Positions 1 to 33,039 of a stretch of DNA of 33,039 nt are shown piece after piece. How positions within the stretch are numbered: the stretch's first letter is position 1; every line of letters starts with the position of its first letter. This stretch comes from Burkholderiales bacterium (GTDB lineage: Bacteria > Pseudomonadota > Gammaproteobacteria > Burkholderiales > CAIKXV01), in contig JACMMK010000128.1 of NCBI GenBank assembly GCA_014379045.1, positions 1-33,039 on the forward strand. The letters run 5' to 3'. The notes beneath the pieces were generated by a model. It was not told the DNA's origin. It did not search any database and saw only the letters and a list, made by a program, of their open reading frames with translations. The position numbers were made by a program, and so were the translations under genes.

Positions 1-660
1 AGCATCGTGCGGGCCGGCCGGGAAGGGGGCGACAGCGTGCGCCGCGTAGCTGACGCGGGCGCCGAACTCGTGGCGGGCGTCGGCATCGTGCTGCCGGCCA
101 CGTCGGCGATCGCCGCCGGTCTGGACCTCGGCGCTCAGATCTACAGGCAGCTCGCCGCTGTACGTGCGGCGCGGGCGCTCGATGAATCGCTGGAACGAAT
201 GCAGCCGGTGGTCGATCGCGTCACCGAACTGATCGCAGCACAGCTCGACGAGGCACGCGTGATACTCGTCGCGGCGACGCGCATCGGCGAGGTGAAGCTG
301 CGTTCGCAGTTCGCCGACGAGACCGGCTATCTGCTCGCGCTGCGCAAGGAGCGCGTGGCGCTGTATGCACTGACGCCGCTCACATCGGCAAACGTCGAGC
401 GCCTGCTGCAGATCGAGCGCGTCGAGCGCGCGGTACTCGCGCGTCTGGCACCGATGAACACGGAACTGCGCGCCGGCAACCTGCGCCTGCAATCGGCGCT
501 GCAGCTGACCGCCAGCACACGGCAGGCACTCGCCGACTGGTCGCTGGCCCATCGACAACTGCTCGCCTCGGTGCGCGACGGCACGCCGCTCGATCCGCAG
601 GCGCTCACGCAATCGGTGATCGAACTGCGCGAACTCGTGCAGAGGCTGCGAACGCGGTGA
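1..660 (+). CDS. Hypothetical alpha-helical/coiled-coil protein, probably 5'-truncated by the window edge
   Basis: Frame +1 is open from base 1 to TGA at 658-660. The sequence is A/L/R/E/Q-rich and heptad-like, with one hydrophobic stretch (LVAGVGIVLPATSAIAAGLDLG). No family recognised. Confidence 0.7.
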   Translation, partial: SIVRAGREGGDSVRRVADAGAELVAGVGIVLPATSAIAAGLDLGAQIYRQLAAVRAARALDESLERMQPVVDRVTELIAAQLDEARVILVAATRIGEVKLRSQFADETGYLLALRKERVALYALTPLTSANVERLLQIERVERAVLARLAPMNTELRAGNLRLQSALQLTASTRQALADWSLAHRQLLASVRDGTPLDPQALTQSVIELRELVQRLRTR

Positions 661-794
661 GCGGTTCAGACACGACGACGTCGATGACGCGCGCACACGG
701 CCTGGTCGAACCAGGCAAGACGAACTGAGATGAGCGCGCCGGCGGGGCTGCAGCCATCGGCACCGGTGAACCCTAACGACTGGCGAGGTATCGA

Positions 795-1334
795 ATGAGC
801 CAAGACACGCGGCAGAGCGCGACCGACGACTGGGACCGCATCGAAGGCATCGAGGGCTGGACGCGCAAGCTGCGCTCGCTGTTGCAGGAAGACGCCGCGC
901 TCGCGGCAAAGGCGAGCGATACCTCGGCTCGGCTCGCGATGAGCGAACGGCTGACGCAGTTCGTCGAGCATTCGTTTCCGAACACCGACGCGATCAAGGC
1001 GCTCGACGCGATCGCGACCCGCGCTGCCATCGGCATGCTCGAACAGACGATTGACGAACGTCTGCGCAGCCTGGTCACGCGCAATCTCGAACTGGCGACG
1101 CTGACCAAGCAGCTCGAAGTCGGCACCGACGACGCGCACACGGCCGCAGCGAGCATCCGCCTGGCGCGCGCAGAGAAGACGCTCACCGCGCTGAACGAGG
1201 GCGTGACGATGCTGCGCGAACTGCGCACCAGTCTGAAGCCGGAGGACGATCGACAACTCGTGGCCAGCATCGACAGGGCGATGCTCGCGACGCAGGCGGT
1301 GCGCGCACTGCTTGAGCGCACCCGGGTCGGGTGA
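795..1334 (+). CDS. Hypothetical alpha-helical protein (179 aa)
   Basis: ATG preceded by a GAGGT RBS. Helical amphipathic composition. Stop overlaps the next start (GTGA at 1331-1334), suggesting translational coupling. Confidence 0.75.
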   Translation: MSQDTRQSATDDWDRIEGIEGWTRKLRSLLQEDAALAAKASDTSARLAMSERLTQFVEHSFPNTDAIKALDAIATRAAIGMLEQTIDERLRSLVTRNLELATLTKQLEVGTDDAHTAAASIRLARAEKTLTALNEGVTMLRELRTSLKPEDDRQLVASIDRAMLATQAVRALLERTRVG

Positions 1335-2233
1335 CGCGCGACATCGCCCGGTCGAACGCCGTGCCCGGCCCCGCCATCTTCCTGAGCTACCGTCGCGCCG
1401 ACACCGGCGGGTACGCGGGTCGACTCGCGGCGTCGCTCGAACAGCGCTTCGGTCCGGGCAGTGTTTTTCATGACGTGGTGACGATCGCCCCGGGCAAGGA
1501 TTTCGTCCAGGCGATCGAGGGCGCGATCGAACACGCGCAGGTGGTCCTGGTAGTGATCGGCGACACCTGGCTCGACGCCCGGCATGCCGACGGCGGGCCG
1601 CTCCTCGAACGCCCGGACGATTTCGTGCGCATCGAGGCGGCGACCGCGCTTGCTCTCTCGAAACCGGTGTTGCCGCTGCTCGTCGAAGGGGCGAAGATGC
1701 CCGATGAGAAGCGGCTACCCGACAATCTGAAGGCGCTGGCGCGGCAACAAGCGCTCGAGCTCTCCGACAGCCGCTGGGACTACGACTTCGAACGGCTGGT
1801 CGATTCGCTGCGCACCTTGACTGCGCTAACCGGTCCGACGGACGCCGCCGCGCCGCCCAGGCGACGGACGACGCTGCTCGCACTGGCCGCCGGTGCGGCG
1901 CTCACCGTCGCCGCAGCCGTGTACTTCCTGCAACCCGCACGCCCCCCTGACATTACCGGACGCTGGGATTTGCCCACCGGCAGTTTCTGGATCATCGTGC
2001 AGCAGGGCGATCGCTTCACGATCGAGGAAACGCATTACCAGTCCAGGGAGATATGGAAACGCGGAACCGGTACGATCGCCTCCGGACGCTTTGACTTCAC
2101 GCTCGCCTTGGTGTTCGAGCGCCGGGCGCCCGAAACCGGCAGTCTGCGTCTGTCGACCGATGCGCGCACGCTGGCAGGCGAACTGCGCCGCAGCGACGGC
2201 CGGTCCACCCCGATCGCGTTGACTCGTCACTGA
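1331..2233 (+). CDS. TIR-domain (TIR_2-like) membrane-anchored protein: N-terminal TIR, single TM helix, small C-terminal beta-rich domain
   Basis: IFLSYRRADT...VFHDV..I.PG.DF..AI..AI....VVLVVIG..W...DDFVRIEAATAL is a typical bacterial TIR_2 pattern with the catalytic-position Glu. RRR followed by LLALAAGAALTVAAAVYFL is a TM helix. The tail begins DITGRW. Confidence 0.88.
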   Translation: MTRDIARSNAVPGPAIFLSYRRADTGGYAGRLAASLEQRFGPGSVFHDVVTIAPGKDFVQAIEGAIEHAQVVLVVIGDTWLDARHADGGPLLERPDDFVRIEAATALALSKPVLPLLVEGAKMPDEKRLPDNLKALARQQALELSDSRWDYDFERLVDSLRTLTALTGPTDAAAPPRRRTTLLALAAGAALTVAAAVYFLQPARPPDITGRWDLPTGSFWIIVQQGDRFTIEETHYQSREIWKRGTGTIASGRFDFTLALVFERRAPETGSLRLSTDARTLAGELRRSDGRSTPIALTRH

Positions 2234-2296
2234 AATGGCCCAGCCACGCAATGCGCGTTTGACCGTCCGCATTACCCACCCGGCGGATCGAAGCCG

Positions 2297-4288
2297 ATGA
2301 AACCGCACGCGTTCGTCGCGATGCCGTTCGGCATCAAGCCCGGCCACGACGGCATCCCGATCGATTTCAACCGGGTGTTCAGCGAACTGATCCGTCCCGC
2401 GCTGGAACAGGCTGGCTGCGTCGTCTTCCGCGCCGATGAAGAGACGCGCGCCGGCGACATCCGCACCGACATGTTCCAGGAACTGCTGGTGGCGGACCTG
2501 GTGCTCGCCGATCTGACGCTCGACAACCCGAACGTGTGGTACGAACTCGGCGTGCGCCATGCGCTGCGCGCACGCGGCGTGGTGTTGATTCAGGGCCCGC
2601 GACCCACGCAACCGTTCGATATCTACACCGATCGTAAACTGCGCTATTCGGTCAAGGACGGCGGGCCCGACCCGGCAACCGTCGAGACGGATCGGGCGCG
2701 TCTGTCGACGATGGCGCGCGAGACGATCGATGCGAACAGCGCGCGCAAAGTCAGCCCGGTCTACACGCTACTCGATCACCTGCGCGAACCCGAGTGGCGC
2801 GACCTGCTGCTGTCGGAGGACAACGAGTTCAGCCGCGCCTACGAGGCCTGGCGCTCCCGGATGGAAGTCGCGCGTCAGAAGAATCGGGCCGGCGACATTC
2901 TCGTCCTGGCCGAGGAAACACCGACGCAGGCCCTGCAACTCGAAGCGCGGCGCGCGGCGGGCGATTGCCTGATCAAGTTGCGGCACTTCGATTTCGCGCT
3001 CGAACAGTTCGAGGCCGCCCTCGCGCTGGACGATCAGGATCGCAGTGCGCGCCTGAAACGCGCGCTGTGCCTCGCCCGGCTCGGACGCTTCGAAGAGGCG
3101 CGCGAAGAGGTGCGCAGGTTGCGTGACCAGCGCCCGGGCGATCCCGAGATCTGCACCCTGCTCGGACGCATCGAAATGGAGAGCTGGATTCAGCGCTGGC
3201 AGCAGCCCGACCCCGGCGGCGGCGCAACGCCCTCGGGATCGGGTGCCGGCAGCACCACTGCGTCGCTGCGGGCGGCCGCCGCCGCCGAAGAAGCGAGCCT
3301 GTCCGACGCGATCGAACCCTATCGCACCGCGTTCACCCTGCAACCCGCGAACTACTATGCCGGCGTTGCCTGGCTCACCCTTGCGACACTGCATGTGCAC
3401 CTGACCGAACGCGCCGACCCGGCGTTGATCGAACAGGTGCTGGGCGGTGTGCACTGGTCATGCCTGAGCGCGCTCGAGCGCAGTCCGCGCGACTACACGT
3501 CGCGCGCGAGCTACGCGGAGATGTGCCTGCTCTGCTTCGACGCGGGGCGCGTTCGGGAGTCCTGGAGCACCGCGGTCGCCGCCGCCAACCGTGACTGGTT
3601 CGCGCTCGACTCGTCCCGGCAGACGCTTGCGATGTTAAGAGACCTCGAGTTCCGACCGACGGAAACGGCGCTCGCGCTGTCGATCGTCGAGCGCGAGATC
3701 GCGCGTGCGGCACCGCCGTTCCAGCCCCGCCAGGTGTTCGTGTTCAGCGGACACATGATCGATCAGCCGACGCGACCGATACCGAGATTTCCGATGGAAA
3801 AGTCCACTGGGGCGGCCGCACGCATCGGTTCGGCACTCGATCAGTTAAGTGCGGGGCCCGGCGATCTGGCGCTCTGCCAGGCTGCCGCCGGCGGCGATCT
3901 GCTGTTCCTCGAAGCGTGTCAGCAGCGCAGCGTACGCTGCCAGATGATGTTGCCGTTTCCCGAGCCCGATTATATCGAGCGCTCGGTGTTGCCGGCCCAG
4001 GAAGGGGAGTCGTGGCGCGAACGCTACTACGCGGCCAAGCAGAAACTGACCGACCCGCCGAGAATCATGACGGTAGAGATCGGGCCGCTGCCACGAGGCG
4101 CGAACGCGTATGAACGCTGCAATCTCTGGTCGTTGAACACCGCGCTCGCGTGGGGCGTCGAACGCGTGCGTTTCGTCTGCCTGTGGAACGGTATCGGCGG
4201 CGATGGTCCCGGCGGCACCGCCCACATGTACAACGAGGTCAAGCGGCGTACCGGCCGCGTGACCTGGATCGACGTGCGCTCGTTGTGA
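2297..4288 (+). CDS. Multidomain protein: deoxyribosyltransferase/hydrolase-like (DUF4071, 'TRAFs-binding'-like) N-terminus + TPR repeats + SLOG-like C-terminal domain
   Basis: N-terminus AFVAMPFG...FRADEE...GDIRTDMFQELLVADLVLADLTLDNPNVWYELGVRHA. Central TPR-like repeats (ALEQFEAALALD...ALCLARLGRFEEA; YRTAF...NYYAG). C-terminus FSGHMID...AAGGDLLFLE...LPF...AYERCN...LWNG.GGDGPGGTAHM matches the SLOG (YpsA/DprA-like) pattern. Confidence 0.82.
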   Translation: MKPHAFVAMPFGIKPGHDGIPIDFNRVFSELIRPALEQAGCVVFRADEETRAGDIRTDMFQELLVADLVLADLTLDNPNVWYELGVRHALRARGVVLIQGPRPTQPFDIYTDRKLRYSVKDGGPDPATVETDRARLSTMARETIDANSARKVSPVYTLLDHLREPEWRDLLLSEDNEFSRAYEAWRSRMEVARQKNRAGDILVLAEETPTQALQLEARRAAGDCLIKLRHFDFALEQFEAALALDDQDRSARLKRALCLARLGRFEEAREEVRRLRDQRPGDPEICTLLGRIEMESWIQRWQQPDPGGGATPSGSGAGSTTASLRAAAAAEEASLSDAIEPYRTAFTLQPANYYAGVAWLTLATLHVHLTERADPALIEQVLGGVHWSCLSALERSPRDYTSRASYAEMCLLCFDAGRVRESWSTAVAAANRDWFALDSSRQTLAMLRDLEFRPTETALALSIVEREIARAAPPFQPRQVFVFSGHMIDQPTRPIPRFPMEKSTGAAARIGSALDQLSAGPGDLALCQAAAGGDLLFLEACQQRSVRCQMMLPFPEPDYIERSVLPAQEGESWRERYYAAKQKLTDPPRIMTVEIGPLPRGANAYERCNLWSLNTALAWGVERVRFVCLWNGIGGDGPGGTAHMYNEVKRRTGRVTWIDVRSL

Positions 4289-4415
4289 GCGCGCCGAGCA
4301 CTACCGGCACGGCGCCCGGTGCGCGTCGCGCCTGCCCTGCTGTCCTGCCGCCCCGCCATCCCGGTCGTAGCCGACCACCCCTGCATCCCTGAACCCCCGC
4401 GAAAAGGAGTCTTCG

Positions 4416-5588
4416 ATGAGCGCAGCCCTGATCGAACGTATTGCAAGTCCCGGCCCGAAGAAGATCCTCGCCTGCGACGGCGGCGGCATTCTCGGCCTGA
4501 TGTCGGTCGAAGTGCTGGCCAAGCTCGAAGCCGACCTGCGCGTCGCACGCGGCGACCCGACCCTCGTTCTTTCGGATTTCTTCGATTTCTGCTGCGGCAC
4601 CAGCACCGGCGCGATCATCGCCACCTGCCTCTCGGCCGGCATGTCGATCGACGAGATCCGCGCGTTCTACGTGGGCAGCGGCAAGCAGATGTTCGACAAG
4701 GCTTCGCTGTTCAAGCGCCTTCGCTTCAACTACAACGACGAACCGCTTGCCCAGAAACTGCGCGTCGAACTCAACCGTGCACTCGGACGCAGCGAAGGTC
4801 CGCCCTTTGCTTCACTCGGCGACGAGAACCTGCGCACGCTGCTGATGATGGTGATGCGCAATCACACCACCGACTCGCCGTGGCCGGTGTCGAACAATCC
4901 CCACGCGCGTTACAACGCAGCGCAACGCGGTGACTGCAACCTCAATCTCCCGCTGTGGAAACTCGTGCGTGCGAGTACCGCTGCGCCGACGTTCTTTCCG
5001 CCCGAAGTCGTGCTTTTCGGGGAAGGTTCGCCCAAAGAGTATTCGTTCATCTTCGTCGATGGCGGCGTGACCACCTACAACAATCCCGCGTTCCTCGCCT
5101 TCCAGATGGCTACCGCCGCTCCCTACCAGGTGAACTGGAAAACCGGCGTCGACCAGATGTTGATCGTGTCGATCGGCACCGGCAGCGCGGCCAAGGCGCG
5201 GCCCGACCTGGCCACCGGTGACCTCAATCTGCTGCATTACGCGACGACGATACCCTCGGCGCTGATGAACGCCGCCTCCGCGGGTTGGGACATGGCCTGC
5301 CGCACGCTCGGCGCGTGCCGTTTCGGCCCGTCGATCGATCGCGAGGTCGGCGACATGACGCTCGCTGAAGGTTCTCCCTCTAACTGGACGGCCGAGAAGC
5401 TGTTCACCTACGTGCGCTACGATCCCGATGTCACCCAGCCCGGGCTCGACGCCCTCGGCCTCTCGTCGATCCAGGCGGCGAACGTGCAGGTGATGGATTC
5501 GGTCGAGTTCATTCCCGACATTCAAGCGGTCGGTAAAGCGTATGCCGAACACCATGTCACCCTCGAGCACGTTCGTCCGTTCGTCTGA
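4416..5588 (+). CDS. Patatin-like phospholipase
   Basis: Oxyanion motif DGGGILG, nucleophile GTSTG, ASTAAPTFFPP and catalytic DGG are all present. AAAAGGAG RBS upstream. Confidence 0.95.
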   Translation: MSAALIERIASPGPKKILACDGGGILGLMSVEVLAKLEADLRVARGDPTLVLSDFFDFCCGTSTGAIIATCLSAGMSIDEIRAFYVGSGKQMFDKASLFKRLRFNYNDEPLAQKLRVELNRALGRSEGPPFASLGDENLRTLLMMVMRNHTTDSPWPVSNNPHARYNAAQRGDCNLNLPLWKLVRASTAAPTFFPPEVVLFGEGSPKEYSFIFVDGGVTTYNNPAFLAFQMATAAPYQVNWKTGVDQMLIVSIGTGSAAKARPDLATGDLNLLHYATTIPSALMNAASAGWDMACRTLGACRFGPSIDREVGDMTLAEGSPSNWTAEKLFTYVRYDPDVTQPGLDALGLSSIQAANVQVMDSVEFIPDIQAVGKAYAEHHVTLEHVRPFV

Positions 5589-7248
5589 GCCCGTGAACGT
5601 GCGCGCGACCGGAGTCCGGCGGCGCAGCGCCGAGCGCGACTTGAAGCAGGCGCTTGCGCAGGAGCGTGCGGGACGAGCGATCTTCGTGCGTCAGATCGAT
5701 CCACGACAGCACGCTCGCATCCGCGTCGGGCGCACGCGCCAGCGAACGTTCGGCCAGCGCCCGATCGGTGTTCTCGTCGGCAACGAATACGCAGTCGGCC
5801 ACCCGCCCGACGCCGGCCAGCTGCTGCAGCTCGAATACGCAACCGGCATTCGACGCGGTAAAGCCGCGCAGATCCATCAACACGACCCGGCTGCGCGCCA
5901 CCAGTGCCTGCAGTGTCGGGCGCCACGTGTCGTCGAAACAGAAAAACTCCTCGATGCGGTAACGCCCATCAGGATCGACGCGCGCCTGCTGCAACGCGTG
6001 CAGCCGGGCGGCAAGCCCTGCGCGGTCGGCGACATAGCTCGACTCGATCTCGCCGTGCGCGAACGCCAGTGCCTCGTCGACATCGACCGAGCGCAGCGCG
6101 AGATCGGCGCCGGCGATCATTGCCACCGGCCCGGTGAAGCGCCAGCGCGCGGCCACCGCGTCGAACAATCGCTCGGTACGCTGCTGATGCCCGAACACCC
6201 GCAACAGCAACAGCGCGGGTCCGTCGCCGCGGCGTCCCAGATCGAGCCGACGCAACAGAAGCCTCACCCCGAAGAAGTAGACGACGTACGCCCCTGCCGC
6301 GCACACCAGTGCAGTCGATGGACCGTAGCGCCACAGCGAGGTCAGCCCGAACGCGACGATGACGCCCCACCAGGCATCGGCGAGCAGTTGCATGTCGCTG
6401 AAGCGGCGGGCGCGGTAGCGCGCGGCCAGTGCCCCGGCTGCGCGCCACGCGAACCAGCCGACCGGCAGGCTCGCGCCAAGAATGATCGACGCGGGCCCCG
6501 TGTTCATCGCCAACAGGCGTATCGGCGTCAATTCGAGCGGCTCGGTCCCGGCGAACAGAAGCATGAAACCGTGATAGACGATTGCAATCACCAGCGACAG
6601 CGACATCACCATGACGAGGACGAGCGGCAGCACGTTGCGCAGGCGCGGGCGCCCGGTCAGGTAGACCAGCGCTGCGGGCACCGCGGCAGTCCAACCGAAG
6701 CCCGCGAGAAAATAGCCCGCATTGAGCAGCAGTTCGAGGGTGAGTTCGCGTCCGGTCGCCAGGCGCAGCAGTGCCGGCACCGCCACGGCGAGGACGGTGC
6801 CGATGGCACACACCAACGCGAACCCGAGCCAGGTCTGCCGGCGCTCCGCGTGTACCAGCGCTGCGATGATGAACAGCGCGGCGGCCCAGTTGGGATACCA
6901 CCAGATCGCCGCCCGCAACGCGCCCAGCCCGTCGCTCGACTCGCGCCACAATTCGAACATCGGCGGGGCATGAAGGACTGCTGCGGACAATCCGAACGCC
7001 ACCGCGTACGCGAACACGAGCCCTCGCCGGACCCGTACGTCGTCTTGCGCGTGGGTGGCAAACGCGCGCGCCGGGGGCGGCGGCGCCATCGGCTGCCCGG
7101 CGTCGAAGTCGCGCGCATTCGACACCATGCGCATCGTCCTGGCGAGCGCACGCCGATAGAAACCGAGAAACGCCCACGTGACGAGCAGCGAGACGAGCAA
7201 GCCGCTGGCAAGGGCGTAGAGAATTTCTCCCGACTGTATCGTGGACAT
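5557..7248 (-). CDS. Multi-pass membrane protein with C-terminal cytoplasmic TIR/NDT-like (flavodoxin-fold) domain
   Basis: About 10 hydrophobic segments in the N-terminal ~340 aa, then LLLLRVFG...DDTWRPTLQALVARSRVVLMDLRGF...GCVFELQQL. The 3' end overlaps the patatin 3' end convergently. Confidence 0.72.
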   Translation of the reverse strand: MSTIQSGEILYALASGLLVSLLVTWAFLGFYRRALARTMRMVSNARDFDAGQPMAPPPPARAFATHAQDDVRVRRGLVFAYAVAFGLSAAVLHAPPMFELWRESSDGLGALRAAIWWYPNWAAALFIIAALVHAERRQTWLGFALVCAIGTVLAVAVPALLRLATGRELTLELLLNAGYFLAGFGWTAAVPAALVYLTGRPRLRNVLPLVLVMVMSLSLVIAIVYHGFMLLFAGTEPLELTPIRLLAMNTGPASIILGASLPVGWFAWRAAGALAARYRARRFSDMQLLADAWWGVIVAFGLTSLWRYGPSTALVCAAGAYVVYFFGVRLLLRRLDLGRRGDGPALLLLRVFGHQQRTERLFDAVAARWRFTGPVAMIAGADLALRSVDVDEALAFAHGEIESSYVADRAGLAARLHALQQARVDPDGRYRIEEFFCFDDTWRPTLQALVARSRVVLMDLRGFTASNAGCVFELQQLAGVGRVADCVFVADENTDRALAERSLARAPDADASVLSWIDLTHEDRSSRTLLRKRLLQVALGAAPPDSGRAHVHGLRRTDERARG

Positions 7249-7309
7249 CGGTGTCGTCCAGGCGCATAACTGCGCTGAGAGTTCCGCAAACTACCGCGCC
7301 CGAAGACCC

Positions 7310-7534
7310 ATGGCAACCGTCGAATCCAGCGACTCTGCGCCTTCTACAGCGCGACCCTCCGCGTCGGCCGCGGCGAGTGGTCAGGCGATCGCGGACAATG
7401 TCGCGCCGCGCATCCGCGCATCGCGCTGGCTCCCAGGTTGGGCACGCTTCATACTCGCGCTCTGGGCCGTGGTACTGCTTTTGCTCGCGTTTCAACATGT
7501 TTCGCTGATGCTGTTCACTGCATCTGTCGGCTGA
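7310..7534 (+). CDS. Possible small membrane protein (~74 aa)
   Basis: ATG at 7310 is in frame with ORF 7241..7534. Ser/Ala-rich N-terminus then one hydrophobic helix (FILALWAVVLLLLAF). Fills the gap before the TIR gene. No clear RBS. Confidence 0.4.
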   Translation: MATVESSDSAPSTARPSASAAASGQAIADNVAPRIRASRWLPGWARFILALWAVVLLLLAFQHVSLMLFTASVG

Positions 7535-7588
7535 CACCCCGCGCTCGTCCCCATCACGGGCAGACCTGAACCGCACCGCACGCTTTCG

Positions 7589-9151
7589 ATGAGCTTCGAC
7601 CGTCACGCTTTCATCAGCTACGCGCACATCGACAATGAACCTCTCACCCCGGAACAGAAGGGGTGGGTGACGCGGTTTCATGCGACGCTTGGTACGATGC
7701 TCAGCCAGCGTATCGGGCAGAAGGCAGACATCTGGCGCGACGATAAGTTGGCCGGCAACGACGTCTTTTCCGAGGAGATCGTCGACCAGTTCGCGCGCAC
7801 GGCACTGCTGATCTCGGTATTGACGCCGCGCTACCTGAAGTCCGAATGGTGTACCCGCGAGATCCGCGAGTTCTGCGCGGCGGCGGAGCGAACCGGCGGC
7901 TTGCTCGTCGACAACAAATGCCGGGTGTTCAAGGTGATCAAGACCCCGGTCGACAGCGAAGCGTGCCTGCCCCCGGTGATCGGCCAGGTACTCGGTTATG
8001 AATTCTTCGCACTCGACGAGGACCAGACGCCCCGCGATCTCGATCCGGTATTCGGCGATGCCTCACGCCAGGAGTTCCTGCGCAAGTTGAACAAGCTCGC
8101 GTGGGACATCGCGCAGTTATGGGAGCAGCTCGACGAACGCAGGACCGCGACCGCGGACGAGGTCGTGACGAACGGTCGCACCGAGGCAGCCACCACGCAG
8201 GCGCCGCGGGGTGTGCGCAAGCCGGCCGTCTTCCTGGCGCAGGTCAGCCGCGATCAGCGCGCCGCGCGCGAGATGATCGAAGCCGGTCTGAAGCGCCACG
8301 GTTATGTCGTGCTGCCCGACCGCCAGTTGCCGCTCGACGAGGAAATGTTCGTCTGCGCAGTGGAGTCGTGTCTGGCGCAGTGTGCATTCTCGATCCACCT
8401 GATCGGCAACGGTTACGGGGTGGTGCCCGACGGCCCCAGCCAGCGCTCGCTCGTCGTGCTGCAGAACGAACTCGCGGCCGCCCACAGCCGCGATCGAGGG
8501 TTGAAACGGCTGATCTGGATCCCGCCGGGCACCGCCGGGGAGCAACCGGCACAGCGGGCATTCATCGCCACGTTGCTCTCCGACGCCAGCGCGCAACTGG
8601 GTGCAGACCTGCTCACCGGAGATATCGAAAGCGTAAAAGGCGCGGTTCATGCTGCGCTTACCCGAATTGAACTCGCGCAGACGACCGAGCGCGCACGTGC
8701 ACCGGCAAACGGCGCCACCGAGTCGCACAAGGCCGTCTACCTGCTGTGCGATGAGCGCGATCGACGCGACATCGTGCCGCTGATTCGTCATTTGCGCAGT
8801 GCCGGCCTGGAGGTGACCACGCCGGTGTTCACCGGCGACGCCGCCACCGTGCGCGAGGCGAATCAGCAACGGCTCGCGACCTGCGATGCGGTGATCCTTT
8901 TTTATGGAGCGGGTGACGAGGCCTGGAAGTATCACCAGGAGAACGAGCTTCGGAAGATGGCCGGCTTGCATGTGTCGCACTCGGCACCGCCGGTCCATCT
9001 TTACGTCTCGGCTCCGGCGAGTCCGGACAAGGAACTGTTGGTTTCGTTGCAGGAGCCGAATCTGATCGACGGGTCGGGCGGCCTGGCGGTCGAAGCCCTC
9101 GCGCCGTTCATCGCGGCATTGCGATCGGGCGACGCGCTTTCATGCCGGTAA
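7589..9151 (+). CDS. Protein with three tandem TIR-like domains (canonical TIR + DUF4062-like + degenerate TIR)
   Basis: Domain 1: AFISYAHIDN...IWRD...LISVLTPRYLKSEWCTRE. Domain 2: VFLA...SIHLIGNGYG...SLVVLQNELA. Domain 3: VYLLCD..D...CDAVILFYG...W. The domains are joined by Ala/Thr-rich linkers. Confidence 0.82.
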   Translation: MSFDRHAFISYAHIDNEPLTPEQKGWVTRFHATLGTMLSQRIGQKADIWRDDKLAGNDVFSEEIVDQFARTALLISVLTPRYLKSEWCTREIREFCAAAERTGGLLVDNKCRVFKVIKTPVDSEACLPPVIGQVLGYEFFALDEDQTPRDLDPVFGDASRQEFLRKLNKLAWDIAQLWEQLDERRTATADEVVTNGRTEAATTQAPRGVRKPAVFLAQVSRDQRAAREMIEAGLKRHGYVVLPDRQLPLDEEMFVCAVESCLAQCAFSIHLIGNGYGVVPDGPSQRSLVVLQNELAAAHSRDRGLKRLIWIPPGTAGEQPAQRAFIATLLSDASAQLGADLLTGDIESVKGAVHAALTRIELAQTTERARAPANGATESHKAVYLLCDERDRRDIVPLIRHLRSAGLEVTTPVFTGDAATVREANQQRLATCDAVILFYGAGDEAWKYHQENELRKMAGLHVSHSAPPVHLYVSAPASPDKELLVSLQEPNLIDGSGGLAVEALAPFIAALRSGDALSCR

Positions 9152-11307
9152 CCGGGTCTGAAGGCCTGCGCAGCGCCAGCGACCCGCGACATCAGCCCGG
9201 GTTCAATCCGTTTCCGGGGTTGCGACCGTTCCAGGAACACGAGGAGTATCTGTACTTCGGCCGCGAGCCGCAGGCCGATGCGCTGATCACGAGGCTCGCG
9301 GCAACGCACTTCCTCGCCGTGGTGGGCACGTCGGGGTCGGGCAAATCGTCGCTGGTCAACTGCGGACTGCGCCCTGCCCTCCACCGCGGCCTGATGACCA
9401 GCGCCGGCAGCGCGTGGCGCATGGCGTACCTGCGACCGGGCCTGGCACCGCTGACGTCGCTGGCCGAAGCGCTGGCGGCGCCCAACGTACTCTTTTCATC
9501 GGTCGACACGGGGGAGTTCAGCCAGGCCGAGCTGATCGAAAGCTCGTTGCGGGTGAGCAAACTAGGGCTGATCGATGCGTTCACCCAGGCGCGGCTGCCC
9601 GCGCACACGAACCTGCTGATCGTGGTCGACCAGTTCGAAGAGCTGTTCCGCTATCGCGCGCTGGCTAGCGCCGGCCGGGTCGATGAGGCACGCGTGCGCG
9701 AGGACGCGACCGCGTTCATGAATCTTCTGCTCGAGGTGCCGGAACATCCGAACCTGCCGATCTTCGTCGTGTTGACGATGCGCTCCGACTTTCTCGGCGA
9801 TTGCGCGCAGTTCTTCGGCCTTCCCGAGGCGATCAATCGCGGCCAGTATCTCGTACCCAGGATGACGCGCGAGGAGCGTCGCACCGCGATTTCCGGTCCG
9901 ATCGGTGTCGGCGGCGCGGAGATCGACCCGGTACTGTTGACGCGCCTGGTCAACGACGTCGGTGACAACCCTGATCAGTTGTCCCAACTGCAGCACGCGA
10001 TGAATCGTACGTGGGCCGGGTGGCGCGACGAGTGCGAGCGCGACGCCGGCACCGCCGTGCCAATCAGCCTGCGCCACTACGAGGCAATCGGCACCATCGC
10101 CCAGGCACTGAACCAGCATGCCGAAGAGGCTTTCGACGCGCTTCCGACCATCCGGGCGCAGATGCTGTGCGAAGCGCTGTTCCGGGCGATCACCGACCGT
10201 CGACTCGACGCACGCGGCACCCGTCGACCCACCCGGCTCGACACGCTCTGCGCGATCACCGAGGCCGATGCCGACACGTTGATCGAGGTGATCGACGTCT
10301 TTCGTGATCCGCGCTGTGCATTCCTGATGCCTCCGGCAGGCGAGCCGATCGATGCCGATACCGTGATCGACATCTCGCACGAAAGCCTGATGCGGGTGTG
10401 GACGCGTCTGCGCCAATGGGGCGAGGAGGAAGCGCTGTCGGCGCGCGTGCTACGACGTCTCGCGAAGACCGCGGAACTCAACGCGGCCGGCCAGGCGAAC
10501 CTGCTGCGTAATCCTGAGCTGCAGGTGGCGCTCGATTGGCGCCGCCAGGAAAAACCGAACGAGGCATGGGCCTCGCGCTATCACCCCGTATTGGACGATG
10601 CGCTGAAACTGATCGACGCGAGTCAGGCGATGGTCGAGCATGAAGAAGCGGAGGACGCGCGCAGGCGTGCCGAGGAAGCCCACCTGCGGGCGGAGATCGC
10701 GCATTCGGGTCGCCGCCGCCGCTTCTGGATGGGAGCAACGACGCTGTTCATTCTCGTCGTCACTATCGGCTCGTACTTCGTCTATCTGCAACAGAAGGCG
10801 ATCAGCGCCGAGCGGGCGGCGTTCGAAAGCGAAAAGACCGCCCTCGCCGCGAAGATTGCCTTCGAGGCGGAGCGCTCGCGCGTGAGAATCCTGGACGCCG
10901 AAAGCAGGGACGCCCAGAACCAGCTCGCCGCGGCATACCAAGCGGCGCCAAATCTGGTGAAAGGGGTGTCGGGCGCACCTGCCACCGCGACAGTGGTTTA
11001 TCTGCAAGTTCCTGCCGGACAGAATCGCGCTGAGGCGCAATCGGTGCAGAAACAATTGCAGGGCGCCGGGTACAAAGCGCCCGGCGTCGAGGGGGTGAGC
11101 GTCAGCCCACGAAATTTCGAGCTACGCTATTTCCGCGAAGAAGATGAGAACAGTGCGCGCAAGGTGGCCGAACTGGTGCGTAGATGGACTTCAAGCGACC
11201 TGCGTCTGGTCCGCGTTCCCGGCTTCGAGACGCGCTCGCGATTGCAGCAGTTCGAGCTCTGGTTTCCTGCGCAGGACGCCGCTGCGCCAGCGCGCACGCG
11301 GAACTGA
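9142..11307 (+). CDS. nSTAND1-type (novel STAND) NTPase with coiled coil, TM helix and small C-terminal extracytoplasmic domain
   Basis: NPFPGLRPF....YFGRE, Walker A GTSGSGKSS, Walker B LLIVVDQFEELF, TMRSDF, ISHESLMRVWTRLRQW. TM helix FWMGATTLFILVVTIGSYFVYL after RRRR. C-terminal alpha/beta domain (VYLQ...ELRYF...FELWF) instead of WD40 repeats. Confidence 0.88.
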   Translation: MPVTGSEGLRSASDPRHQPGFNPFPGLRPFQEHEEYLYFGREPQADALITRLAATHFLAVVGTSGSGKSSLVNCGLRPALHRGLMTSAGSAWRMAYLRPGLAPLTSLAEALAAPNVLFSSVDTGEFSQAELIESSLRVSKLGLIDAFTQARLPAHTNLLIVVDQFEELFRYRALASAGRVDEARVREDATAFMNLLLEVPEHPNLPIFVVLTMRSDFLGDCAQFFGLPEAINRGQYLVPRMTREERRTAISGPIGVGGAEIDPVLLTRLVNDVGDNPDQLSQLQHAMNRTWAGWRDECERDAGTAVPISLRHYEAIGTIAQALNQHAEEAFDALPTIRAQMLCEALFRAITDRRLDARGTRRPTRLDTLCAITEADADTLIEVIDVFRDPRCAFLMPPAGEPIDADTVIDISHESLMRVWTRLRQWGEEEALSARVLRRLAKTAELNAAGQANLLRNPELQVALDWRRQEKPNEAWASRYHPVLDDALKLIDASQAMVEHEEAEDARRRAEEAHLRAEIAHSGRRRRFWMGATTLFILVVTIGSYFVYLQQKAISAERAAFESEKTALAAKIAFEAERSRVRILDAESRDAQNQLAAAYQAAPNLVKGVSGAPATATVVYLQVPAGQNRAEAQSVQKQLQGAGYKAPGVEGVSVSPRNFELRYFREEDENSARKVAELVRRWTSSDLRLVRVPGFETRSRLQQFELWFPAQDAAAPARTRN

Positions 11308-31840: not shown

Positions 31841-33039
31841 ATGCCCGCAACACACGCCGTCGCCGGCGCCCGGCTCGCCGTCGACATCGGCGGCACCTTC
31901 ACCGATATCGTACTGGAGGCGCGCGGCACGCGCTGGACCGGCAAGGTATTGACGACCCCGCGCGCGCCGGAAGAAGCCGTGGTGATCGCGATCGACGAGA
32001 TCCTCGCGCGCGCCTCGCTCGAGCCCGCGGCGCTCGGTTTGTTCATCCTCGGCACCACGCTCGCCACCAACGCGCTGATCGAACGCAAGGGGGCGAAGAC
32101 GGCGCTGGTGACGACGCAGGGCTTCCGCGATCTGGTCGAGATCGGCTGGGAGCACCGCTTCGCGCAGTACGACATCTTTCTGGACAAGCCGGCGCAATTG
32201 GTGCCGCGCTATCTGCGTCTGCCGGTTCCCGAACGCATCGACGCGCAGGGACGCGTGCTGCTGCCGCTCGACGAAGCCGCAGTGAACGCACTCGTGCCCG
32301 GGCTCGAGCGCGAGGGTGTGGAGAGCGTAGCGGTCGCCTTCCTGCAAAGCTTCGTCAATGCGGATCACGAGCGCCGCACCCGCGACCTGCTGCAGAAGGC
32401 GCTGCCGGACCTGTGGATCACGCTGTCCTCCGACGTCTGCCCCGAGATCCGTGAGTACGAGCGCATCTCGACGACCTGTGCGAACGCGTACGTCCAGCCG
32501 GTGATGGCCGGTTACCTCAACCGCCTCGGCGCGCGGCTGAAGGCGATGCACATCGATTGCCCGGTATTCCTGATGACCTCCGGCGGTGCGTTGTGCACGC
32601 TGGGGATGGGCGCCGCGGAGCCGGTGCGACTGGTCGAGTCGGGTCCGGCCGGCGGGGCGATCCTTGCGCGCACCGTCGCCGAGAGCGTCGGCGCAAAGCG
32701 TGCGCTGTCCTTCGACATGGGCGGCACCACGGCGAAAATCTGTTTCATCGACCACTACGAGCCTGAAATCTCGCGCAGTTTCGAGTTCGGACGGATGTAT
32801 CGCTTCATGAAGGGGAGCGGGCTGCCGATCCGTATCCCGGTCATCGAGATGGTCGAGATCGGTGCGGGGGGCGGCTCGATCGCGCGCGTCGACGACCTCG
32901 AACGCATCCAGGTCGGGCCCGACAGTGCCGGGTCGGAGCCGGGCCCGGCGTGCTATGCGCGCGGCGGCACGCATGCGACCGTGACCGACGCCGACTGTGC
33001 GATGGGCCTGCTCGATCCGCGACGATTCGCCGGCGGTCG
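31841..33039 (+). CDS. Hydantoinase/5-oxoprolinase A subunit family protein, 3'-truncated by the window edge
   Basis: Read directly from ATG 31841: MPATHAVAGARLAVDIGGTFTD...KVLTTP...GTTLATNALIERKGAKT..TT.GFRD...REYER.ST..ANAYVQP...ESGPAGG...DMGGTT...IGAGGGS...GP.SAGS.PGPACY..GG...TVTDA. The frame stays open to the end, which is why it is missing from the ORF track. Confidence 0.93.
   Translation, partial: MPATHAVAGARLAVDIGGTFTDIVLEARGTRWTGKVLTTPRAPEEAVVIAIDEILARASLEPAALGLFILGTTLATNALIERKGAKTALVTTQGFRDLVEIGWEHRFAQYDIFLDKPAQLVPRYLRLPVPERIDAQGRVLLPLDEAAVNALVPGLEREGVESVAVAFLQSFVNADHERRTRDLLQKALPDLWITLSSDVCPEIREYERISTTCANAYVQPVMAGYLNRLGARLKAMHIDCPVFLMTSGGALCTLGMGAAEPVRLVESGPAGGAILARTVAESVGAKRALSFDMGGTTAKICFIDHYEPEISRSFEFGRMYRFMKGSGLPIRIPVIEMVEIGAGGGSIARVDDLERIQVGPDSAGSEPGPACYARGGTHATVTDADCAMGLLDPRRFAGG

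Follow-up and report, generated by a model that had tools for sequence, protein, structure and literature searches.

We analyzed a window of 33,039 nucleotides (nt), that is, the whole stretch from position 1 to position 33,039 (forward strand) of contig JACMMK010000128.1 in GenBank assembly GCA_014379045.1, from a Burkholderiales bacterium. Positions 1331 to 5588 hold what we take, with slightly more confidence than doubt, to be a Thoeris-type immune module working on a signal derived from NAD+. It would be an extended variant of the type VIII Thoeris and BcTir-BcTpr systems, in which the signal of a TIR protein is read by the SLOG/TPR-S part of a second protein, switching on that protein's enzymatic head and a separate patatin. 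The evidence comes from folds, motif conservation, gene linkage, and gene fusions. Three plus-strand genes make up the block: a TIR gene (1331-2233; P0004, 300 residues), a gene for a 663-residue protein (2297-4288; P0001) that starts 63 nt past the TIR gene, and a gene for a patatin-like phospholipase (4416-5588; P0002, 390 residues) after a gap of 127 nt. The patatin open reading frame (ORF) is preceded by AAAGGAG, which we read off the sequence as a ribosome-binding site.

Domains of the 663-residue protein

Structure prediction confirmed a three-part organization for P0001. The predicted parts are an N-glycosidase head resembling MilB and the nucleoside 2-deoxyribosyltransferases (NDTs) of the DrHyd type (residues 1 to 153; 2297-2755), a TPR-S helical repeat scaffold resembling that of ASK1 (residues 181 to 474; 2837-3718), and a SLOG domain of the YpsA clade (residues 477 to 663; 3725-4285). 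For the scaffold, Pfam agreed with the model (TPR-S, PF20308, E = 3.6e-16, residues 231 to 363). The MAP3K_TRAF_bd/DUF4071 family (PF13281) stayed below threshold in P0001, with 15.3 bits against a cut-off of 24.1, and is present in most of its close relatives according to precomputed annotation.

The AlphaFold2 model of P0001 was built from an alignment of 49 sequences, reaching down to about 30% identity, and formed a single body (predicted local distance difference test score [pLDDT], 92.1; predicted template modeling score [pTM], 0.90). We compared it exhaustively with 48,161 PDB representatives. The top match was the central regulatory region of ASK1 (5ulm_B; Z 19.3, root mean square deviation [rmsd] 3.6, 260 aligned, P0001 residues 181 to 474), by a margin that is modest for a helical repeat, the next TPR proteins scoring Z 16.5 and below. 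YpsA came second (2nx2; Z 16.9, residues 477 to 663), and full ASK1 came third (8qgy_B; Z 16.8, residues 7 to 474), with head and TPR superposing together. Residues 1 to 153 matched MilB (4ohr_A; Z 12.4, rmsd 3.3, 137 aligned) and NDTs (7o62_A, Z 12.3; 6evs_B, Z 12.0). In the model, E83 lies at the start of helix 78-90, after strand 68-72, which is the acidic position expected of an NDT. Its equivalence with MilB E103 is taken from the preprint on BcTpr and not from a superposition here (Liu et al., bioRxiv 10.1101/2023.05.26.542521).

Folded alone, the SLOG domain reached a pLDDT of 97 and again matched YpsA best (2nx2; Z 16.4, rmsd 3.0, 158 of 178 residues aligned; Foldseek E = 7.7e-6). Its further matches were all SLOG members: DprA (11.9), ShosA (11.4), LOG proteins (8 to 10), TRPM2, and the SLOG of ThsA (6.5). 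Searches with the whole protein were less informative. Foldseek with the whole model was dominated by TPR matches (ASK1 8qgy_A at rank 3, E = 4.4e-5), and no head or SLOG matches were among those listed. The exhaustive aligner was needed to find these. A PDB sequence search gave generic TPR proteins only. ESM Atlas offered weak leads for residues 1 to 175, with Nuc_deoxyrib_tr making up 20% of one cluster (0.88) and CAP12-PCTIR_TIR 12% of another (0.85), and PADLOC matched residues 23 to 117 to a TIR-type CBASS effector (E = 1.9e-6).

A first-pass annotation, made from the sequence, had placed a gene for a 663-residue protein and, behind it, a co-directional patatin gene at 2297-5588. It had also pointed to an NDT-type glutamate and a SLOG-like motif set in the 663-residue protein and likened its N-terminal region to that of ASK1/MAP3K5. 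All of this held up. Both ORFs lie there on the plus strand, the ASK1 matches are those above, and the quoted motifs are present (NPNVWYELG, 77 to 85; SGH, 484 to 486; GGD, 532 to 534; WNG, 630 to 632; GGT, 639 to 641) and conserved in the 49 sequences. A C terminus that fails to model as a SLOG fold had been named beforehand as a refutation, and the C terminus does model as SLOG.

E83 and N79 are each conserved in 43 of the 49 sequences. G485, H486, D489, R497, A530, G532, D534, and G640 are invariant, and E539, R607, N609, and T641 are near-invariant (T641 in 47 of 49). Eight of the nine invariant columns of the alignment fall inside the SLOG domain, which is the best-conserved part of P0001. 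We regard the SLOG domain as the likely ligand pocket because it is this best-conserved part and because it shares its fold with a known receptor for an isomer of cyclic ADP-ribose (cADPR): in the Thoeris preprint, the SLOG of ThsA (type I Thoeris, SIR2-SLOG) binds 3'cADPR as a receptor (Yirmiya et al., bioRxiv 10.64898/2025.12.03.692087).

The same residues could be seen differently. The SLOG domain might be a second enzyme, with LOG-like cleavage or remodeling of an ADP-ribose-type signal that sets a threshold or acts as an off-switch, leaving TPR-S as the real sensor. The invariant H486, D489, R497, and D534 do resemble, with the near-invariant E539, R607, N609, and T641, a catalytic constellation, and Iyer et al. 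describe LOG-clade SLOGs as N-glycosidases and propose that viral YpsA-like SLOGs degrade cADPR-type signals (PMC9503650). The Thoeris preprint, for its part, presumes that the TPR perceives cADPR in ThsI (bioRxiv 10.64898/2025.12.03.692087). We nevertheless consider a second enzyme distinctly unlikely, given that the best structural match is YpsA at Z 16.4 and the LOG enzymes reach only 8 to 10, that the SLOG of ThsA is a receptor, and that a sensor domain (cNMP_binding) is appended at the same end in the relatives P0183 and P0202.

Partner genes, fusions, and direction of signaling

P0004 has an N-terminal TIR domain (Pfam TIR_2, E = 8.1e-14, residues 16 to 157), a hydrophobic helix, which we read from sequence alone as a membrane helix, and a short C-terminal domain. 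Its glutamate at the catalytic position (E102, in a VRxE motif) is invariant in all nine TIR neighbors of the P0001 family that were aligned. We predict that P0004 is probably a ThsB-like signal generator. Among the best 80 of 575 confirmed genome loci for P0001, which formed our forward survey, 16 have TIR genes similar to P0004. TIR genes were found in 15 of the 24 loci with a patatin versus 8 of the 56 loci without one.

P0002 is a clear member of the Pfam Patatin family (PF01734, E = 2.7e-22, 80.4 bits against a cut-off of 27.7). Among 18 orthologues, DGGG (21 to 24) and GTSTG (61 to 65) are invariant columns. The DGG motif (215 to 217) has two invariant glycines, G216 and G217, and keeps D215 in 17 of 18 sequences. 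The catalytic set of P0002 (oxyanion G22 to G24, S63, and D215) is conserved. PADLOC matched P0002 to phospholipase effector models of the cyclic oligonucleotide-based antiphage signaling system (CBASS; E = 8.4e-40), and a profile search of PDB sequences found potato patatin (3.6e-29) and CapV (8zr9, 9.4e-20). A predicted complex of P0001 residues 180 to 663 with the patatin returned no answer (score, 0.00; mark, 0.32).

CapV is the cyclic GMP-AMP (cGAMP)-activated patatin phospholipase of CBASS, and it is the closest characterized bacterial patatin effector to P0002. However, it does not belong to the nearest system. P0002 scored 104.2 bits against the NCBIfam model CBASS_lipase (NF041079), below its cut-off of 200, and its partner, unlike that of CapV, is a SLOG-bearing protein. 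The 22 ORFs of the window that we scanned with Pfam included no CD-NTase (nucleotidyltransferase) gene. We rejected a CBASS variant because of this missing cyclase and the score below the cut-off.

Of the 80 loci, 24 contain a P0002-like patatin gene, and in 18 of these it follows the family gene immediately downstream, within 200 nt and in the same orientation. Fewer than 500 nt of downstream sequence are available in 6 of the 80 loci, which leaves 74 evaluable. On a tree of 80 family homologues (L063, too short, was left out), the patatin occurs in L005, the relative nearest to the window, and is absent from the next four (L001 to L004). The family gene of L001 and L004 is directly followed by rhodanese, TetR, and M24 genes that are located at 11.3 to 15.7 kb in this window.

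The reverse survey covered 301 genomes of the same order and gave 15 matches at least 51% identical to P0002 outside the window's genome. Nine are directly beside a full-length P0001 homologue, with gaps of 32 to 93 nt, and one is separated from its homologue by a TIR-TPR gene. Two have a stand-alone SLOG ORF as their neighbor (G162 and the unpublished genome G294), and two, at contig starts, are not evaluable (G020:C31 and the unpublished genome G026). A 63%-identical patatin (L090; G138:C152:1-6000) is preceded not by a SLOG-bearing gene but by a Macro-domain ORF, which the start of the contig truncates. In that locus, a caspase-like gene follows the patatin at a distance of about 1 kb. Twelve of the 13 evaluable close orthologues are beside a SLOG-bearing gene, whereas none of five distant paralogues (39 to 46% identity) adjoins a P0001 homologue. 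Therefore, the pairing is optional for the P0001 family and nearly obligatory for this patatin clade, and it follows the SLOG part. Stand-alone SLOG ORFs of the P0001 clade (L085, L086, L088, and L089) adjoin TIR, caspase, and giant CHAT genes.

Patatins of this kind also occur fused to other modules. Among 31 longer relatives of P0002 (E up to 1e-20) we found 8 patatin-TIR, 6 patatin-nSTAND1, 2 patatin-FGE-sulfatase, and 3 patatin-TPR-S fusions. P0177 is 47% identical to P0002 residues 28 to 390 and then 35% identical to P0001 residues 153 to 663. P0280 (915 residues) has a patatin at 17 to 238, TPR-S at 485 to 611, and a SLOG domain 53% identical to that of P0001. In both proteins, the patatin sits exactly in the position of the P0001 glycosidase head. 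P0147 (799 residues) has an N-terminal Ser/Thr kinase in that position, followed by TPR-S, which also matches MAP3K_TRAF_bd, and a SLOG domain 52% identical to that of P0001. Other relatives have additions: a sigma-54 AAA+ activator module is appended to the same chassis in P0253, and P0183 and P0202 carry a cNMP_binding domain at the C-terminal end of a head-TPR-S protein. Since the head is swapped for a patatin or a kinase, TPR-S-SLOG is the constant unit, and the head behaves like an interchangeable output. This sequence comparison argues that TPR-S-SLOG is the sensor.

These results bear on the first-pass annotation, which had described the P0001-patatin pair as a possible self-contained module, a cyclase-free analogue of CBASS-CapV. 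It was right about the parts and about a functional link between them, and right that the patatin is co-directional with a full catalytic set. The pair does recur (24 of 80 loci; 12 of 13 close patatin orthologues), but it is optional for the P0001 family. That the pair is self-contained is not supported here: a TIR gene with a conserved glutamate, which the annotation missed, lies 63 nt upstream. The annotation had also suggested that the product of the head, or the SLOG domain, gates the patatin. The head is an unlikely source of a signal for the patatin because a patatin or kinase replaces the head in P0177, P0280, and P0147 and because the homologue ThsI is an effector. Its polarity is probably wrong, as is its analogy with CBASS-CapV, given the CBASS_lipase score of 104 bits versus 200.

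We infer the ligand, the direction of signaling, and the patatin coupling as follows. On infection, the membrane-anchored P0004 would produce a nucleotide derived from ADP-ribose, for instance cADPR. The TPR-S and SLOG chassis of P0001 would perceive it, most likely through a pocket in the SLOG domain, as fold, conservation, and the domain swaps suggest. Ligand binding would then switch on the N-glycosidase head of P0001 (Glu83), leading to depletion of NAD+ or nucleotides, and would also switch on the separately encoded patatin, so that the membrane is damaged and the infection aborted.

Several observations weigh against this Thoeris-type reading. The patatin is optional for the P0001 family, and explaining its presence on the family tree takes 14 changes, of which well-supported branches require at least 11. 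A gene for a giant protease of about 1,900 residues (DUF7379-CHAT-TPR-S) is found in 26 of the 80 loci, instead of or in addition to the patatin, and many of the 80 loci have no partner, only housekeeping neighbors. Distances among patatins correlate with those among their partners (Mantel r = 0.59, n = 22, 0 of 2,000 permutations as high), and this point in favor of a dedicated pairing may be only a mark of shared species history. The SLOG domain's invariant His486, Asp489, and Asp534 could belong to an active site instead of a ligand pocket. A Pfam scan of the whole of P0001 at E up to 10 gave no NDT, CMP-hydrolase, TIR, or SLOG family; Pfam has no model that recognizes the head or the SLOG domain, and both assignments rest on predicted structure. 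NCBIfam gave no SLOG-type family for P0001 either; the SLOG domain of P0001 represents a divergent clade that no curated sequence model covers. Our literature search turned up no experiments on the long form with SLOG or on the patatin that accompanies it. Finally, 9 of the 24 patatin-bearing loci showed no TIR gene within about 6 kb by the queries used, which makes a TIR-independent mode possible, and in the BcTpr preprint the head of BcTpr itself makes a cADPR isomer and BcTir is catalytically dead, with Lys in place of Glu (bioRxiv 10.1101/2023.05.26.542521).

The last two points would suit a two-gene relay without TIR, in which the TPR senses a phage cue, the head makes a signal from NAD+ or a nucleotide, and the SLOG domain or the patatin reads it. 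The preprint also reports that cADPR binding precedes NAD+ depletion and that Tpr stands alone in 29 of 78 core Tpr operons (bioRxiv 10.1101/2023.05.26.542521), and many members of the P0001 family likewise stand alone. Even so, we think such a relay unlikely. The head behaves like an output, since a patatin or a kinase replaces it on the same chassis, and a TIR gene with an intact Glu adjoins P0001 here. In type VIII Thoeris, moreover, the signal is canonical cADPR, produced by the TIR upon infection, and cells that contain the system are poisoned when cADPR is supplied from outside (bioRxiv 10.64898/2025.12.03.692087).

If the Thoeris-type reading is true, it adds a phospholipase arm to TIR/Thoeris signaling, with one sensor chassis driving two killing activities. 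The swaps of glycosidase, patatin, and kinase on one scaffold would be a clean set for dissecting the roles of SLOG and TPR-S, and the scaffold would offer a tractable bacterial model for the human ASK1 regulatory region. There would be no new principle, because the parts list was predicted computationally, by the BcTpr preprint's account of Burroughs and Aravind 2020 (bioRxiv 10.1101/2023.05.26.542521), and short-form relatives have already been tested in two preprints. A broader proposal can be offered tentatively, as rather unlikely. TPR-S-SLOG may be a portable, ligand-gated chassis that works on a glycosidase, patatin, or kinase in cis and on a patatin in trans by direct docking, so that in the three-gene form a single ADP-ribose-type signal from the TIR protein sets off nucleotide depletion and membrane destruction together. 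The kinase forms might then be the closest living model for the origin of the ASK1 regulatory region, the ASK1 N terminus having come from a nucleotide-gated switch.

Family distribution and flanking genes

The P0001 family is large. A word-indexed search gave 2,115 relatives, the best 120 of which are all full-length proteins of 642 to 692 residues with 62 to 77% identity. When representatives clustered at 50% identity were searched exhaustively, 16,226 matched with E up to 1e-3, and 412 matched with E up to 1e-30. Relatives that have all three parts at full length reach down to about 30% identity. Forms of about 444 to 492 residues that end before the SLOG domain also exist (e.g., P0139, P0169, and P0185). 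In a small set of such SLOG-less forms from the order sample (L091 to L094), no TIR or patatin gene adjoined L091, L092, or L093 by the queries used. All nine longer forms that were scanned have an extra N-terminal module ahead of the whole protein: SLATT_1 in three, AAA_35 plus TIR in two, TIR in one, and a ParA/CbiA-like NTPase in three. In the window's own genome, a head paralogue (L082; G000:C511:10741-14109, ORF 1480-2685, 401 residues) is fused to a Macro domain (E = 4.1e-7), which is another link of the head to ADP-ribose chemistry.

Presence of the family is patchy within the order (31 of 301 genomes). The best loci are mostly from Betaproteobacteria (Accumulibacter, Thauera, Rubrivivax, and Hydrogenophaga), and the family is common in wastewater and freshwater members of this group. 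It is both common and large (412 clusters at 50% identity, E up to 1e-30). Therefore, any function found would apply widely. The bin that contains L004 is titled Bordetella parapertussis, but on the family tree the locus clusters with bins of environmental Burkholderiales, and the title is probably an artifact of binning or taxonomy. L073 has a second, partial family copy (425 residues; 8496-9773, minus strand) on the opposite strand, adjoining the patatin and downstream of the full-length copy.

The neighbors of family genes allow a further question, whether this is a defense system at all. A general stress or cell-fate signaling module, with the patatin in lipid remodeling, could account for fusions of the chassis to a sigma-54 activator (P0253), a kinase (P0147), and cNMP-binding domains, and for the many copies whose neighbors are housekeeping genes only (pseudouridine synthase, SDR, and MFS). 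We hold this to be very unlikely because the usual partners are parts of conflict systems (TIR, CHAT/caspase, SLATT, nSTAND1, and Pepco/Trypco), because presence is patchy and partners vary, and because both tested relatives, type VIII Thoeris and BcTir/BcTpr, are reported in their preprints to defend against phages. Immediate neighbors also include caspases and genes for TIR-STAND-TPR, DUF4062-TPR, TIR-TPR, TPR-S, and Pepco/Trypco proteins. The giant CHAT gene (L018:59-6004 and 25 further loci) and the family gene often share 4 bases. Giants of the L018 type combine a DUF7379/DUF676-like esterase, a CHAT-caspase, and TPR-S and replace or supplement the patatin as a partner. L044 and L046 have giant, homologue, and patatin in a row.

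The G+C content of the window is 58 to 69%. On the 5' side of the block, a 179-residue ORF (795-1334, plus strand) runs 4 bases into the TIR gene, which starts with GTG. This 179-residue ORF had no match in a Pfam scan, and a related ORF lies just 5' of the P0001 homologue in L005; it is possibly the first gene of the block. On the 3' side, a 563-residue ORF (5557-7248, minus strand) with high third-position GC is convergent with the patatin gene and overlaps its 3' end by 32 bases. It matches nothing in Pfam, NCBIfam, or PADLOC, and its relatives sit just after the P0001-family gene in L002 and L003. A plus-strand ORF at 5542-7269 was set aside because it is rich in Arg, Gln, and His and looks like a shadow of this minus-strand ORF, whose third-position GC is higher.

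Further downstream, Pfam identified a TIR_2/DUF4062 (FxsC-like) gene (7589-9151, plus strand) that overlaps the start of an nSTAND1-SPOR gene (9142-11307, plus strand). The same pair directly follows the patatin in L005. It is probably a second conflict system of the same island. Beyond about 11.3 kb, the window contains housekeeping genes. A scan of positions 1 to 8000 found zero promoter-like sites and four terminator-like sites versus 4.7 expected.

Comparison with known systems

The animal kinase ASK1/MAP3K5 shares with P0001 an N-terminal regulatory region on which head and TPR superpose. P0001 differs in having no PH domain and no C-terminal kinase, and a SLOG domain follows its TPR. The kinase is also placed differently, at the N terminus in bacterial P0147 and at the C terminus in ASK1. 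As a kinase-bearing relative of an ASK1-like scaffold, P0147 may bear on the origins of ASK1.

ThsA of type I Thoeris, like P0001, joins a SLOG domain to an enzyme domain that destroys NAD+ or nucleotides, in a TIR-linked system. In P0001, however, the enzyme is NDT-like and not SIR2, a long TPR-S scaffold lies between the two, and the SLOG domain belongs to the YpsA clade (Z 16.4, versus 6.5 for the SLOG of ThsA). Iyer et al. place TIR, DrHyd, and SLOG in one clade and link YpsA-like SLOGs to cADPR-type ligands (PMC9503650).

BcTpr of Bacillus cereus is a protein of 415 residues with a MilB-like head and TPR. Its N82 and E86 (N-P-N-x-x-x-E) are reported to be required for NADase activity, formation of the cADPR isomer, and defense (bioRxiv 10.1101/2023.05.26.542521). 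P0001 has the same NPNxxxE spacing, its N79 and E83 matching N82 and E86, and TIR partners are common in both families. Unlike BcTpr, P0001 has a SLOG domain, and unlike BcTir, P0004 keeps the glutamate at the catalytic position. The preprint lists 78 core Tpr operons, for which it credits Burroughs and Aravind 2020: 28 with TIR, 5 with YpsA, 4 with patatin, and 29 with Tpr alone (bioRxiv 10.1101/2023.05.26.542521). In that account, the assemblies of Tpr with patatin (4 of 78) or YpsA (5 of 78) are catalogued computationally only.

Type VIII Thoeris is, with BcTir/BcTpr, the closest tested system. Its effector ThsI is described as a CMP hydrolase plus TPR that cADPR turns toxic, and the system is said to be abundant in Pseudomonadota; SLATT effectors (type VII Thoeris) respond to the same cADPR, sometimes in the same operon (bioRxiv 10.64898/2025.12.03.692087). 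The window likewise has a co-directional TIR gene 63 nt from a gene for a protein with a MilB/CMP-hydrolase-like head and TPR, and SLATT is fused to relatives of P0001. In the main text of the preprint, the word patatin is absent and SLOG is named only for other Thoeris types (bioRxiv 10.64898/2025.12.03.692087). Unlike ThsI as described there, P0001 adds a C-terminal YpsA-type SLOG domain of about 190 residues and a patatin partner. With its dedicated patatin, P0001 represents a long form of the ThsI/BcTpr-like proteins that bears a SLOG domain, an assembly that had been catalogued computationally.

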